IMG/VR virus record: IMGVR_UViG_3300020455_000616
From: a virus
Strand: one strand, 5' to 3'
DNA length: 64,000 nt
Shown: piece by piece, positions 13,823 to 37,205 of the stretch
How positions within the stretch are numbered: position 1 is the stretch's first letter
How the letters are laid out: each line of letters opens with the position of its first letter
The notes under the pieces: generated by a model
What the model saw: only the letters and a program-made list of their open reading frames with translations
Database searches by the model: none
What the model was told of the DNA's origin: nothing
Position numbers and translations under genes: made by a program

Positions 13823-14487
13823 TAACCAAAAGTTGAATCAGGTTCTAATGCAATAAAGTATGTAAGATCATAATCTTTACATTTAAACCTAGACAATAGT
13901 TTCTGAGATACAACAACCTCATAAGTACCAGGTATAATTTTAATATTTTCTACTTTAAAATTAAAGTTGAATACATCATTTGTCTCACCAACTGTAATAG
14001 CAAAGTCATTAGAAGTATCATTCTTCTTATCTCTAACAACAATCCTTACTACACCATTCTCACCAACGACTGCTAAGTCTGGTAACTGATAAATTGCTGC
14101 TGCCTTAAGCAAACGATCTAACTGTTGTGTATTCAATACAAATGATACATCCTCACTAGGAAGATCTAAATTCTTATCTGGTGGTGTAACTATTACGCTA
14201 GGATCAGCAAAGAAGTATTTGGATCTCATCCTACCTTCTTTAATAACTACATGACCTTCATTGTCAAAATCCAAATCAGGATTCTGATGTAGACCCATAC
14301 CATTAAGGAATTGATTCAAATCATATATTCCAAAATCTTTTGGGAATGATTCATTGACTTCTGCTTCTGCAAGAATATTCTTCATTACAGAGATTGTACG
14401 AAGTTTACTACCCTCTTTAAAAAGAATAGATTGATTGATGTTACTGAAGTTCTTAAGTAGATTAACAGTTTTATCAGAAAGTTTCAT
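13822..14487 (-). CDS. gp45: sliding clamp
   Basis: MKLSDKTVNLLKNFSNINQSILF, FGIYDLNQFL, YFIALE; start placed at MKLS. Confidence 0.94.
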   Translation of the reverse strand: MKLSDKTVNLLKNFSNINQSILFKEGSKLRTISVMKNILAEAEVNESFPKDFGIYDLNQFLNGMGLHQNPDLDFDNEGHVVIKEGRMRSKYFFADPSVIVTPPDKNLDLPSEDVSFVLNTQQLDRLLKAAAIYQLPDLAVVGENGVVRIVVRDKKNDTSNDFAITVGETNDVFNFNFKVENIKIIPGTYEVVVSQKLLSRFKCKDYDLTYFIALEPDSTFG

Positions 14488-15148
14488 AACGAGTGTTAGT
14501 ATAATCAGTTTCTTTAGTGTTGCCACTGAAGTAATAGAGGAGTAAGCAATAATGCATTGCTTTTAGTATATCTTGTTTTGCAGTTCCCTTCTTATCATAG
14601 CGACTCAAATACTTAAGTGCATTAGATCGACAGAATGATTCTGCATCACCTACAGAGTGAATAAGATCAAGAGTTTGAGTATCTGAATTCTTATTAGTGT
14701 AGTGTCCTTGATAGGTAGAAGAGACATAAGTTTTTAAGTCTTCAATACCTTTATCTTCTTGATACTTGTGAGATTTATAGTTTAAATCTGGTTGAGGTTT
14801 TGGATCATGAGCATCAGCAAAAGTTACAGTATCCTCAGTATTAAAGGTTACAGTATCATAACCACTAGTGTCAATGTTGAGAGATTCTGCTGCACCAACC
14901 ATGTTGTCTATTTGAAAATCAAATGCACTAGCATAAGGATTAGTTTCTATGGTTTTTTCAAATGGATTTTCAGTTAATCCATTTCTATCCCAATCATAGT
15001 AATACTGAGAATGCTTTGGTTCAGGATTAATTAGGTCATAGTCCTCACTTTCTAATGAGGTGATCCTATCATCATCTTTTGACTTTGGAGGATCATACTC
15101 ATCAGACTCCTGAGGTGTTACTCTATTCTCGTCACTCATAGTAGACAT
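14474..15148 (-). CDS. DUF3310-like hypothetical protein with acidic N-terminal extension
   Basis: HY ... FCRSNALKYLSRYDKKG ... DILKAMHY motif. Confidence 0.6.
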   Translation of the reverse strand: MSTMSDENRVTPQESDEYDPPKSKDDDRITSLESEDYDLINPEPKHSQYYYDWDRNGLTENPFEKTIETNPYASAFDFQIDNMVGAAESLNIDTSGYDTVTFNTEDTVTFADAHDPKPQPDLNYKSHKYQEDKGIEDLKTYVSSTYQGHYTNKNSDTQTLDLIHSVGDAESFCRSNALKYLSRYDKKGTAKQDILKAMHYCLLLYYFSGNTKETDYTNTRYETF

Positions 15149-15162
15149 TCTTTTCTCCTAAT

Positions 15163-15191
15163 ATTATACCAAGGATTCTTCTTCTTGTCCA
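15163..15191 (-). promoter_or_regulatory. sigma70-type promoter TGGACA-17bp-TATAAT
   Basis: Lies in the last codons of the AAA ATPase gene, followed by an AGGAG SD. Confidence 0.65.
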
Positions 15192-16318
15192 TCTTCTGCT
15201 GGTGCAAAATTAGGATCAACCTTGTCATAGAGTTCTAAGAAGGACTGCTTAGTCTCATCATCAAATCTATTGAGGCACATATTAACTGCCTTCTCCTTGT
15301 TATTGAAGATGCTATATGCACGGATGATGTGTGTCAAACGACGAGTACTAATAACTTCATCAATACCACCATCATAGAATGTCTTACGGATAATGTCTGC
15401 CCAGTCTACAAGACGCTGACAGAAGTCAGAGTGTTGATTAACTTCAGCATCACCATTAGCAAGACCAACTTCTATTGCCTTTGCTACAAGAATCTTAAAT
15501 TCAGTTGTAGGTGAAGGATACTGTTGTTCAAAGGTAACACAGAATCTTTCTAGGAATGCTTCATTAAGAACATTAGTTCCTATAAATCTACCATCATCAG
15601 ATCCCTTACCCTTTGTATTAGCAGTAGCAAGAATGTTGAATCCTTTAGCAGGTTTTACAAACTTACCAATCTTTTTAAGGAATACTCCTTTACCTTCTAA
15701 GATTGACTGGAGGCACAAGATTTTGTTAGAGGCAAGATCAACTTCGTCCAGAAGCAAGATTGCCCCTCTTTGTAATGCTTCGACAACAGGACCGTTGTGC
15801 CAAACAGTGCAACCATCAATAAGACGGAAACCGCCAATGAGATCATCTTCGTCCGTTTCGACTGTGATGTTGACACGAATTAACTCCCTTCCTAATTGAG
15901 CACACGCCTGTTCGACGCTAAATGTTTTACCATTACCAGATAGACCAGTAATAAATGTTGGATAAAACAACTTGGATTGAATAATTTTCTTAACGTCATT
16001 AAAGTTTCCAAACTTAACAAAAGTTGGATCTTTATCTGGGATAAGATTTTGAACTACAGAAGGAATTGCTGATGGAGCAGATGGAGCAGCAGGTGCTTTG
16101 AATGAACGCTCAATCTTCTCAACTGCTTTTGTAGTTACTTCCAAATTCCACTTACCCTTCTCTACTTTATGCTTAAGTAGTTTCTTAGTGACTGTTTGAT
16201 AACCAATATCATTCATGGCACAGAAGGCACGAATATCAGCAGCAGTAAATTGATTGCCGTATGTCTTCTTTAAACCATTTTTGATTTGGTCTTCGGTCAT
16301 TTTAATTTCAAAAGGCAT
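15164..16318 (-). CDS. cobS: MoxR/CobS-like AAA+ ATPase
   Basis: GLSGNGKT, LLLDEVD, ATANTKGKG, NEAFLERF, ISTRRL. Confidence 0.88.
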   Translation of the reverse strand: MPFEIKMTEDQIKNGLKKTYGNQFTAADIRAFCAMNDIGYQTVTKKLLKHKVEKGKWNLEVTTKAVEKIERSFKAPAAPSAPSAIPSVVQNLIPDKDPTFVKFGNFNDVKKIIQSKLFYPTFITGLSGNGKTFSVEQACAQLGRELIRVNITVETDEDDLIGGFRLIDGCTVWHNGPVVEALQRGAILLLDEVDLASNKILCLQSILEGKGVFLKKIGKFVKPAKGFNILATANTKGKGSDDGRFIGTNVLNEAFLERFCVTFEQQYPSPTTEFKILVAKAIEVGLANGDAEVNQHSDFCQRLVDWADIIRKTFYDGGIDEVISTRRLTHIIRAYSIFNNKEKAVNMCLNRFDDETKQSFLELYDKVDPNFAPAEDGQEEESLV

Positions 16319-35274: not shown

Positions 35275-35287
35275 TAATTTACCTATC

Positions 35288-35302
35288 TATTTAGTCTAAA
35301 TA
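35288..35302. promoter_or_regulatory. palindromic back-to-back late-promoter-like site TATTTAG-T-CTAAATA
   Basis: Perfect 7-bp inverted repeat giving CTAAATA on both strands at the strand switch; plus-strand TGaTATAAT at 35310-35318. Confidence 0.55.
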
Positions 35303-35316
35303 TATCATGTGATATA

Positions 35317-35472
35317 ATGAATACGAACATGGGAAGCAAGAAACCTGATAAAATGTCTAAAATTGATACAGATTATCCTGGACCGTTTAACACACGTTCA
35401 GACAATGATGATGCAATAGCACATCTTGTCAATGATGGTAGATTCTACATTGAAGAAACAGAAGACGATTAA
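35317..35472 (+). CDS. 51-aa peptide, candidate precursor/partner of the radical SAM enzymes (not in ORF track)
   Basis: MNTNMGSKKPDKMSKIDTDYPGPFNTRSDNDDAIAHLVNDGRFYIEETEDD; stop overlaps next ATG (TAATG); alternative in-frame starts at 35329 and 35353. Confidence 0.6.
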   Translation: MNTNMGSKKPDKMSKIDTDYPGPFNTRSDNDDAIAHLVNDGRFYIEETEDD

Positions 35473-37205
35473 TGTCTAATAAAGTCTACTTATTTCAACC
35501 ACAACATGCAATATTCATTAAAGGTATAGAGAACTATTGGTTACCCTATGCTGCTGGATGTCTGTGGAGTTATGCATCTAAACATACTGAAGGTTTTGAA
35601 TTAGGTGAGATTATATTTAAAAGAGAAGATCCTTTTAAGATTTTAGATAGGATAGATGATCCAGTATTATGTGTATTCAGTACATACATTTGGAATGAGC
35701 AGTATAATTTATATCTTGCCAGACTAATTAAAAATAAATTTCCAGACTGTGTTATTGAATTTGGTGGACCTCAATCAACTAGAGGTTTAATAGAGAATGA
35801 TTTTATTGACTGTGTAATCTTAGGTGAAGGTGAAAAACCTATTGTTGATATTCTCAATAGAATTAAAAATTCATGTCACATAAAAGAGATTTATGAGAGA
35901 GAACAAATAAAGGAAGTTACGTATGAAAGTCCATATACTTCTGGTGTATTAGATAAAATCGTAAAAGATAATCCTAATTATCACTGGGCTACATTAGTAG
36001 AATCTACTAGAGGATGTCCTCATCACTGCACCTTTTGTGACTGGGGTACATGGATGGATAAGATTAAAAAATTTGATCTTACTCAAGTAGAAGCAGATAT
36101 TAACTGGATGTCTACTCATAAAGTAGGATTCCTAATGATGGCAGATGCAAACTTTGGAATATTTAAAGACAGGGATTTACTAATTGCAAGGATGCTTAGA
36201 AAGGCAGCAGACCATCCATTAGCAATTATAGATGATCTTACAGTACAATACACTAAAAATTCTACTGATGTTATCTTTGATATTAGTAAAGCATTAGGTC
36301 CATATGATAGAAGAGGGGTGACTATGAGTGTTCAAAGTATGAACTCACCAACTCTAAAAGCAATTAGAAGACAAAACAATACAATAGAAAAGGCAAAAAA
36401 ATTTGTTAAGAAGGCAAGAGAAAAAGGTGTTAATGTATATACAGAAATGATTCTTGGTCTTCCAGAAGAGACAGTAGAATCATGGAAAACTGGATTATGT
36501 GAGTTACTTGAGGCTGGTCAAGATAGCATTGACATATGGTTCTGTCAGGTATTTGGTAACACAGAATTAAATCTCAATAGAGAGAAGTATGGAATTAAAG
36601 TTGTTAATGCCACAGATTATGTCTCATTCACTAATAAAGAAGACTCTATTAAAGAAATAGTTGAGATTGTAAATCAAACAGATAGTATGACAACTGAGGA
36701 TATGATTGAATCATATCTATATGCTTGGATGGTTATAATGTTCCATATTAATGGATTTACTCATGTCTTATCTGAATACTCGAATTTATCATATAGAGAG
36801 TACTATGATAATATGTTTGAATGTCTAAGGAATGATACTGGTTTATTTGGAAATCATTTTAAGGAAATTAAAAAAAGAGTTACCACTTACCTAACTACGG
36901 GTCAGTTAATATCTGATAAAGATAAAGGTCATCTTTTAGAATTAAGTATGGGAACCGACTTTGATTTATTCTGGAATAATAAGACTGAAGTATTTGATTT
37001 TGTAAAATCTATTTTACCTGTATCTAAATCATTATTTGAACTACAACAAAAAACTGTTTATGATCCAAAAACAGAATATCCATTCACAATTATGCATGAT
37101 AAAGAGTTTTATATTATAGATAATCCTAGGAGTGATGAAGAACGTGATGATATATGGGTTCTTAAAAGAAAGAATCTTTTAAAAAACAAACTAATAAAAC
37201 CATGA
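35472..37205 (+). CDS. cobalamin-binding radical SAM protein 1
   Basis: N-terminal B12-binding-type motifs (STYIWN, FGGPQ, DCVILGEGE) and RGCPHHCTFCDW (CxxxCxxC). Confidence 0.88.
   Translation: MSNKVYLFQPQHAIFIKGIENYWLPYAAGCLWSYASKHTEGFELGEIIFKREDPFKILDRIDDPVLCVFSTYIWNEQYNLYLARLIKNKFPDCVIEFGGPQSTRGLIENDFIDCVILGEGEKPIVDILNRIKNSCHIKEIYEREQIKEVTYESPYTSGVLDKIVKDNPNYHWATLVESTRGCPHHCTFCDWGTWMDKIKKFDLTQVEADINWMSTHKVGFLMMADANFGIFKDRDLLIARMLRKAADHPLAIIDDLTVQYTKNSTDVIFDISKALGPYDRRGVTMSVQSMNSPTLKAIRRQNNTIEKAKKFVKKAREKGVNVYTEMILGLPEETVESWKTGLCELLEAGQDSIDIWFCQVFGNTELNLNREKYGIKVVNATDYVSFTNKEDSIKEIVEIVNQTDSMTTEDMIESYLYAWMVIMFHINGFTHVLSEYSNLSYREYYDNMFECLRNDTGLFGNHFKEIKKRVTTYLTTGQLISDKDKGHLLELSMGTDFDLFWNNKTEVFDFVKSILPVSKSLFELQQKTVYDPKTEYPFTIMHDKEFYIIDNPRSDEERDDIWVLKRKNLLKNKLIKP

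Follow-up and report, generated by a model that had tools for sequence, protein, structure and literature searches.

Pairs of a RiPP precursor and a class B radical SAM methyltransferase are known, for example those of the proteusins (PoyBC) and the bottromycin methylases. In phage operons, upstream ORFs that are translationally coupled to the next gene through TAATG or ATGA overlaps are known as well, and the late promoters of T4-like phages follow a TATAAATA-like consensus. The locus described here resembles the RiPP pairs in that a small ORF lies directly 5' of a gene for a cobalamin-dependent radical SAM enzyme and encodes a conserved core with variable ends. It resembles the coupled phage ORFs in that a one-base stop/start overlap is kept in relatives, that the downstream gene is without a clear Shine–Dalgarno sequence and that an alternative Shine–Dalgarno start appears where the ORF is deleted (locus L002).

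The window, the whole 64 kb stretch of DNA that was analysed, comes from the genome of an uncultured marine T4-like cyanomyovirus in which gp23, gp22, the gp21 protease gene and the gp20 portal gene are found on the minus strand. The sizeable genes of the window all lie on this strand, the sole exception being a plus-strand unit between gp21 and gp20 that consists of a small ORF (35317–35472) and two radical SAM genes, rSAM-A and rSAM-B (Table 1). The TAA of the small ORF (35470–35472) and the ATG of rSAM-A have one base in common, and rSAM-B overlaps rSAM-A via ATGA. An earlier reading of the DNA letters (the sequence-only reading) had described a 51-aa ORF and its TAATG overlap with the first radical SAM gene, and both are present, the ORF with the quoted translation. 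The overlap is seen in eight loci (the window, L001, L004, L054, L067, L108, L258 and L259) and is thus conserved in both forms of the small ORF, termed types I and II; L003 has a 2 nt spacer in its place.

Table 1. Features of the window and types of radical SAM cassette found among its relatives.
Feature	Position or loci	Strand or arrangement	Basis
DUF3310 protein gene	14474–15148	−	Pfam DUF3310; adjoins cobS-like ATPase
cobS-like MoxR-type AAA+ ATPase gene	15164–16318	−	Pfam AAA_5 and CbbQ_C
Palindrome CTATTTAG-TCTAAATA	35287–35302		Sequence; between divergent head gene and cassette
Extended −10 sigma-70-type box TGTGATATAAT	35308–35318	+	Sequence; 10 nt 5' of ATG 35329
Small gene, 47 aa	35329–35472	+	Conserved ATG-GGA start; the 51-aa ORF of the sequence-only reading begins at 35317
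Core motif DYPGPFNTRSDNDDAIAHL	35371–35427	+	Alignments, motif census, 917 longer carriers, logo, AF2
TAATG stop/start overlap, small gene/rSAM-A	35470–35474	+	Sequence; recurs in relatives
rSAM-A, cobalamin-dependent radical SAM enzyme, 577 aa	35472–37205	+	Pfam, NCBIfam, solved-structure matches
rSAM-B, paralogous cobalamin-dependent radical SAM enzyme, 613 aa	37202–39043	+	Pfam, NCBIfam; separate clade in tree
c5-type cassette	About 33–40 loci, e.g. L005:1154–2074	c5 (~305 aa) upstream of rSAM-A	Gene-order mapping
Small-ORF-type cassette	Window, L001, L004, L003	Small ORF upstream of rSAM-A	Gene-order mapping
No-upstream-ORF cassette	L002, L044, L045, L030	Nothing upstream of rSAM-A	Gene-order mapping

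Within 12 kb there are 77 ORFs of at least 30 aa, and the length of a 51-codon ORF alone is not significant. Homologues of the small ORF are found in at least three contexts (L001, L003, L004, L054, L067, L108, L258–L260 and P0001–P0006), and it is this comparison that shows the ORF to be coding, as the sequence-only reading had argued from the overlap. Over the 47 codons shared with L004 there are 9.5 synonymous and 7.5 non-synonymous changes, corresponding to a dN/dS of 0.145 (Fisher p = 2e-4). For the core, dN/dS is about 0.09 against L004 and about 0.2 against L003 and against the type II form (range 0.09–0.22). Stops or frameshifts in this frame, or a lack of conservation at the peptide level, had been named as signs against a gene; the stops fall in the remaining two forward frames, in most homologues, and the core is conserved. 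Conserved flanking residues that lie outside the search pattern are encoded by three to five synonymous codons each, so that selection acts on the protein, and this same variation argues against conservation at the DNA level instead. An RNA element or riboswitch in the leader was considered and rejected, as Rfam contains no match up to E = 1 and the fold z-score relative to shuffled sequences is −0.78. On the strength of the alignments, the ORF is a real, selected small protein gene. Pfam, PHROGs, NCBIfam and the protein atlas contain no match for it; neither the 51-aa nor the 47-aa product is recognized by Pfam, and hence both are without a C-terminal DUF3310 domain. In one variant, P0003 (L260:480–524), the last eight codons diverge abruptly at the end of a 524 nt scaffold, which is probably an assembly-end artefact and not a real variant.

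A TGnTATAAT box overlapping the first ATG (35317) had also been pointed out, together with a near-leaderless start of translation. This box, TGTGATATAAT, is present. Five relatives (L001, L067, L108, L258 and L259) keep it, L004 and L260 have TATACT in its place and L003 has no such box. With no −35 match to accompany it, the box was missed by a simple −35/−10 promoter scan. Of the possible starts, 35329 is conserved and 35317 is not. Position 35317 is CTG in L004, L260, P0002 and P0003, and in the type II loci L067, L108, L258 and L259 the ATG within the TATAATG box is out of frame. An ATG-GGA situated 9–10 nt past the box is common to all of these relatives and corresponds to 35329 in the window. 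The P0001 variant has Ile at the equivalent position and retains M1. Aligned in this way, the conserved start is ATG 35329, giving 47 aa, and not 35317, and annotation of the small gene should begin there; a 51-aa product starting from 35317 is possibly made in this particular phage. With the −10 box ending at 35318, a transcript initiated from it would begin only a few bases before ATG 35329 and the message would therefore be near-leaderless.

Further upstream, the palindrome CTATTTAG-TCTAAATA presents a T4-type late-promoter-like core on either strand. A counterpart, TTATTTAG-(G/A)ATAAATA, precedes the first gene of the cassette in all three types (c5, small ORF and no upstream ORF), and is seen upstream of c5 in L005–L038. 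Judged by the late consensus of T4-like phages, the palindrome resembles a late element that acts in both directions, towards the cassette and towards the divergent head gene.

The core of the peptide is an acidic, His-containing segment of about 20 residues with the pattern YP-x-x-F-T-x-x-S-D-N-D-D-[AQ]-I-A-H-[HL], the copy in the window being YPGPF..SDNDDAIAH. In the alignments this core is invariant and the N- and C-termini of the small peptide are variable. Word-based and exhaustive profile searches return only a few small relatives, all belonging to this family: P0005 and P0006 (type II) and the fragments P0007–P0009, the latter being parts of the gene that follows the cobS-like ATPase. 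A census using a degenerate DNA pattern for SDNDD[AQ]IAH yields more than 119 viral stretches, of which 80 were examined. At about 70 of these 80 loci the motif is located inside a cobS-adjacent protein of 190–370 aa with a C-terminal DUF3310 domain, and a cobS match adjoins the motif-bearing ORF in most census loci. A profile search of longer proteins gives 917 motif carriers (protein clusters), and the best 120 of the 917 are nearly all PF11753. The motif-bearing DUF3310 (PF11753) genes have the cobS-like ATPase gene on one side and the gp45 clamp gene on the other, and the logo of the motif reads D-[DG]-Y-P-S-x-F-T-[TA]-L-S-D-N-D-D-[QAS]-I-A-H-[HL]-[IV].

The small ORF thus has the same ~20-residue core, followed by an acidic stretch, as the N-terminal variable region of the cyanophage DUF3310 proteins, and for L003 and the type II forms the similarity may extend upstream (N-x-DP-[DK] before P-x-F). 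Unlike these proteins, it has neither the DUF3310 domain nor their conserved MVNAWSL N-terminus, a distance of 20 kb separates it from the DUF3310 gene of the window, which is on the other strand, and it is coupled to an rSAM gene. By sequence, the small ORF encodes the N-terminal module of the DUF3310 family as a free-standing unit. The module is optional within the family: in an unbiased sample, 21 of 71 close DUF3310 relatives (about 30%) carry a motif. According to AF2, the acidic N-terminal half of a motif-bearing DUF3310 protein is disordered (pLDDT 42), and the free peptide forms a single helix over NDDAIAHLVN, with low confidence (pLDDT 60); apart from this helix and the disorder, the two models carry no information. 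One metagenomic DUF3310 protein, P0012 (247 aa), has two motif copies about 45 residues apart, and the module can therefore duplicate inside the disordered region. The motif is short and conserved, lies in a disordered region, can be absent and can be repeated, and we therefore read it as an interaction module of the short linear motif (SLiM) kind.

A third stand-alone form of the motif is a 73-aa ORF in L079, L102 and L127, which has no rSAM gene nearby. This ORF (L127:8422–8643; L079:85–306) has a helical N-terminus and lies in a thyX/phoH/gp32-type region; in L079 and L127 its 3' end is overlapped by a 144-aa ORF. For the acidic tail of the small ORF we also considered a gp21 protease cleavage site of the (L/I)-x-E type. 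This was discarded, as (L/I)-x-E is not consistently present across the motif carriers. Literature searches turned up no mention of the motif or of these phage rSAM enzymes, and cultured-phage records contain neither.

Both rSAM-A and rSAM-B contain Pfam Radical_SAM domains and give weak B12-binding matches; Pfam detects only these two domains, with no RRE, PqqD or SPASM domain. In NCBIfam both match best to KedN5, a family of cobalamin-dependent C-methyltransferases, with scores far short of its cut-off (6e-42 for rSAM-A). Against solved structures, rSAM-A matches TokK (1.8e-56) and CysS (3.4e-30). TokK, a carbapenem methylase, and CysS are iterative methylases of small molecules, and KedN5 likewise acts on a small molecule. 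The NCBIfam RiPP and MCR C-methyltransferases match the two enzymes weakly (about 1e-8 to 1e-9). In a tree, the two enzymes fall into separate, old paralogue clades, and almost every locus retains both as a pair. Homologues of them are absent from about 50 000 deposited phage genomes.

Viral contigs were scanned with protein guidance, and 53 loci with rSAM-A homologues of 35–99% identity were identified, for which gene order was mapped. All mapped types of head-module cassette occupy the same site between gp21 and gp20 (Table 1). In more than 40 related cassettes the rSAM pair occurs without the small ORF, and c5 fills the slot, its stop overlapping rSAM-A by 11–32 nt. The c5 protein has no Pfam match and is GT25-like by language-model features (score 0.97, taken as a lead only). 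To judge from this, what was originally inserted in the head module looks like two TokK/KedN5-like methylases together with a glycosyltransferase-like enzyme. An origin of the small ORF as a C-terminal remnant of c5 was suggested by an FT...DND alignment made by eye and was rejected, the profile–profile probability being 0.2% and tblastn giving no match.

In L002, L044 and L045 the small ORF is lost and the rSAM genes are intact, and in L002 rSAM-A has a start of its own, AAGGG-N8-GTG. The rSAM-A of L002 is closer to that of the window (93% identity) than is that of L003 (88%), so that the most parsimonious account is that L002 lost the ORF, with some mosaicism at the 5' end. In L003 the N-terminus of the small ORF resembles type II and rSAM-A is of type I, and recombination must therefore have taken place between the two genes as well. 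Types I and II both lie directly 5' of rSAM-A, though the rSAM-A types are only about 51% identical. Since two of the three stand-alone forms of the motif (types I and II, not the 73-aa form of L079/L127) directly precede rSAM-A, adjacency is commoner than a function independent of the enzyme would lead one to expect. In L067 (IMGVR_UViG_3300037427_001083), rSAM-B, gp21 and gp20 are 92–98% identical to those of the window and rSAM-A only 51%, which points to a mosaic cassette with a putative recent swap of the first gene in a near-identical head module. Outside the head module, L054 has a type II core and rSAM-A behind a NifU-like gene, with a new N-terminus joined to the core in frame. This 76-aa NifU-like gene (L054:467–697, PF01106) is located just upstream of the small ORF, and it may be of significance that an Fe–S carrier is encoded next to a radical SAM gene.

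What the peptide does was left open by the sequence-only reading among a substrate, a chaperone and a coupling leader. A pure leader would deliver ribosomes through its translation to the rSAM-A start, which is without a Shine–Dalgarno sequence, and its peptide would be functionless. The conservation of the coupling is in line with this, as is the free variation of the peptide termini, and rSAM-A is always either overlapped by an upstream ORF, as by c5, or provided with its own AAGGG/GTG start. We nevertheless consider a pure leader unlikely: the core is under purifying selection (dN/dS 0.09–0.2), the same motif is found in more than 900 DUF3310-type clusters, a functionless leader would not retain its core across rSAM-A types of 51% identity, and in L054 the core was retained in frame when a new N-terminus was gained. 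Modification of the peptide, and by extension of the DUF3310 motif, by rSAM-A and/or rSAM-B acting as C-methylating enzymes of the RiPP or protein-modifying class B is equally doubtful. The position of the ORF directly 5' of a class B rSAM gene to which it is coupled in several contexts, its invariant core between variable ends and the weak RiPP/MCR methyltransferase matches would suit such a role, and in one genome (G010) the motif, within DUF3310, occurs together with two rSAM genes that have no ORF upstream of them. Against an obligate substrate or chaperone stand the more than 40 homologous rSAM pairs without such an ORF and its loss in L002, L044 and L045. In G004–G006 the rSAM pair is present and no motif is found anywhere in 49–107 kb (records that are 26–56% complete). 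Most motif carriers are without rSAM genes, as in G008 and G009, which have the motif and the portal gene, and cultured phages have no rSAM homologues. The motif and the rSAM genes are thus found in all four combinations. The best characterized relatives of the enzymes act on small molecules, a recognition domain is missing from their Pfam matches and the usual neighbour is the GT25-like enzyme. A role as substrate or RiPP is unlikely because of the ORF-less cassettes, the loss in L002, the four combinations and the TokK/CysS/KedN5-like nature of the enzymes.

The DUF3310 gene of the window brings in a further possibility. Precisely the motif segment is missing from it through a clean internal deletion (…NPF|EKTIE…); relatives of 87–88% identity retain this segment as SDNDDQIAHH, and a window-like deletion is shared by the DUF3310 proteins of L181 and L182. 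The DNA pattern of the motif is unique within the 64 kb window (35398–35424), and no motif is found in the nearest record, G001, a 17 kb fragment. The peptide could then act in trans as part of a split protein, supplying the deleted motif to the cobS-linked machinery and perhaps linking it to the B12 enzymes; a cobalamin theme is indeed common to both contexts, the cobS-like ATPase (annotated as CobS or 'porphyrin biosynthetic protein' in cultured cyanophages) and the B12-dependent rSAM enzymes, which is suggestive. The coincidence of a small ORF with a motif-less DUF3310 protein is not significant, because about 70% of the close DUF3310 relatives are without the motif; four out of four rSAM phages without it corresponds to p of about 0.24. 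Moreover, G004–G006 are without a motif in both places, no contig joins another small-ORF phage to its DUF3310 gene, and AF2 gives no sign of the motif docking on the DUF3310 domain. Trans-complementation is on balance improbable. Its strict form, with the ORF present only where DUF3310 is motif-less, fits the window and is not supported in view of this base rate and of the c5-type phages, which are doubly motif-less. There is a comparably small chance that the motif is a docking peptide for the cobS-like MoxR-type AAA+ ATPase or for another partner that handles cobalamin or metal cofactors, in the service of the rSAM enzymes, or alternatively a true rSAM substrate after all. In the docking case the free peptide, co-translated with rSAM-A, would recruit machinery that loads or maintains the cofactors of the B12-dependent enzymes.

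The reading that we think probable, with some reserve, is that of a genuine small gene which combines a stand-alone DUF3310-type interaction module with translational coupling and whose product is an accessory companion of rSAM-A, not a substrate of the enzymes. The gene would be co-transcribed with both rSAM genes from the late-type element, the extended −10 box or both. Ribosomes terminating on the small ORF may restart at the overlapping ATG of rSAM-A, which is without a good Shine–Dalgarno sequence, and from the arrangement of the cassettes we infer that the rSAM-A start depends on an upstream overlap. The peptide itself would function as a short linear interaction module, binding the same phage or host partner as the motif within the DUF3310 proteins. 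For the rSAM pair, the distribution of the small ORF argues for a dispensable companion.

These observations bring to light a widespread and apparently undescribed peptide motif in hundreds of marine cyanophage DUF3310 proteins encoded beside cobS, an enigmatic 'auxiliary' gene that ranks among the most highly conserved of T4-like cyanophages. The 47-aa stand-alone form is a natural minimal version of this motif and a ready bait in the search for binding partners. Should it dock as outlined above, it would provide a first mechanistic handle on the cobS/DUF3310 gene pair of cyanophages; should it be an rSAM substrate, it would represent a phage-encoded RiPP-like system. For the head-module rSAM cassette as such, its usual GT25-like companion and its TokK/CysS-type small-molecule methylases call for caution with a RiPP reading.

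The motif also bears a likeness to the FAS1 H1 box of cyanobacterial CupS (PDB entries 6tjv chain Q and 2mxa; residues 31–51), where SPGPFTVFAPNDDAFAKLPD aligns without gaps with dYPgpFttlSDNDDaIAHlvn of the phage peptide. The alignment has 11 identities in 21 positions (E = 0.44) and the same strand-then-helix prediction. Unlike FAS1, whose fold comprises ~140 residues, the phage motif has only about 20 of them. Given this E value and no match to the Pfam fasciclin model at E up to 10, homology to FAS1/CupS was not accepted; the likeness is a lead and not a membership, and could be due to chance or be a distant structural echo. The RiPP pairs differ from the present locus in several respects: co-occurrence of ORF and rSAM genes is not obligate here, a recognition domain, protease and exporter are absent, the enzymes are closest to TokK, CysS and KedN5, and the usual neighbour is GT25-like. 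In contrast to the coupled leader ORFs of phage operons, the peptide of the small ORF is itself under selection and is a member of a widespread motif family.
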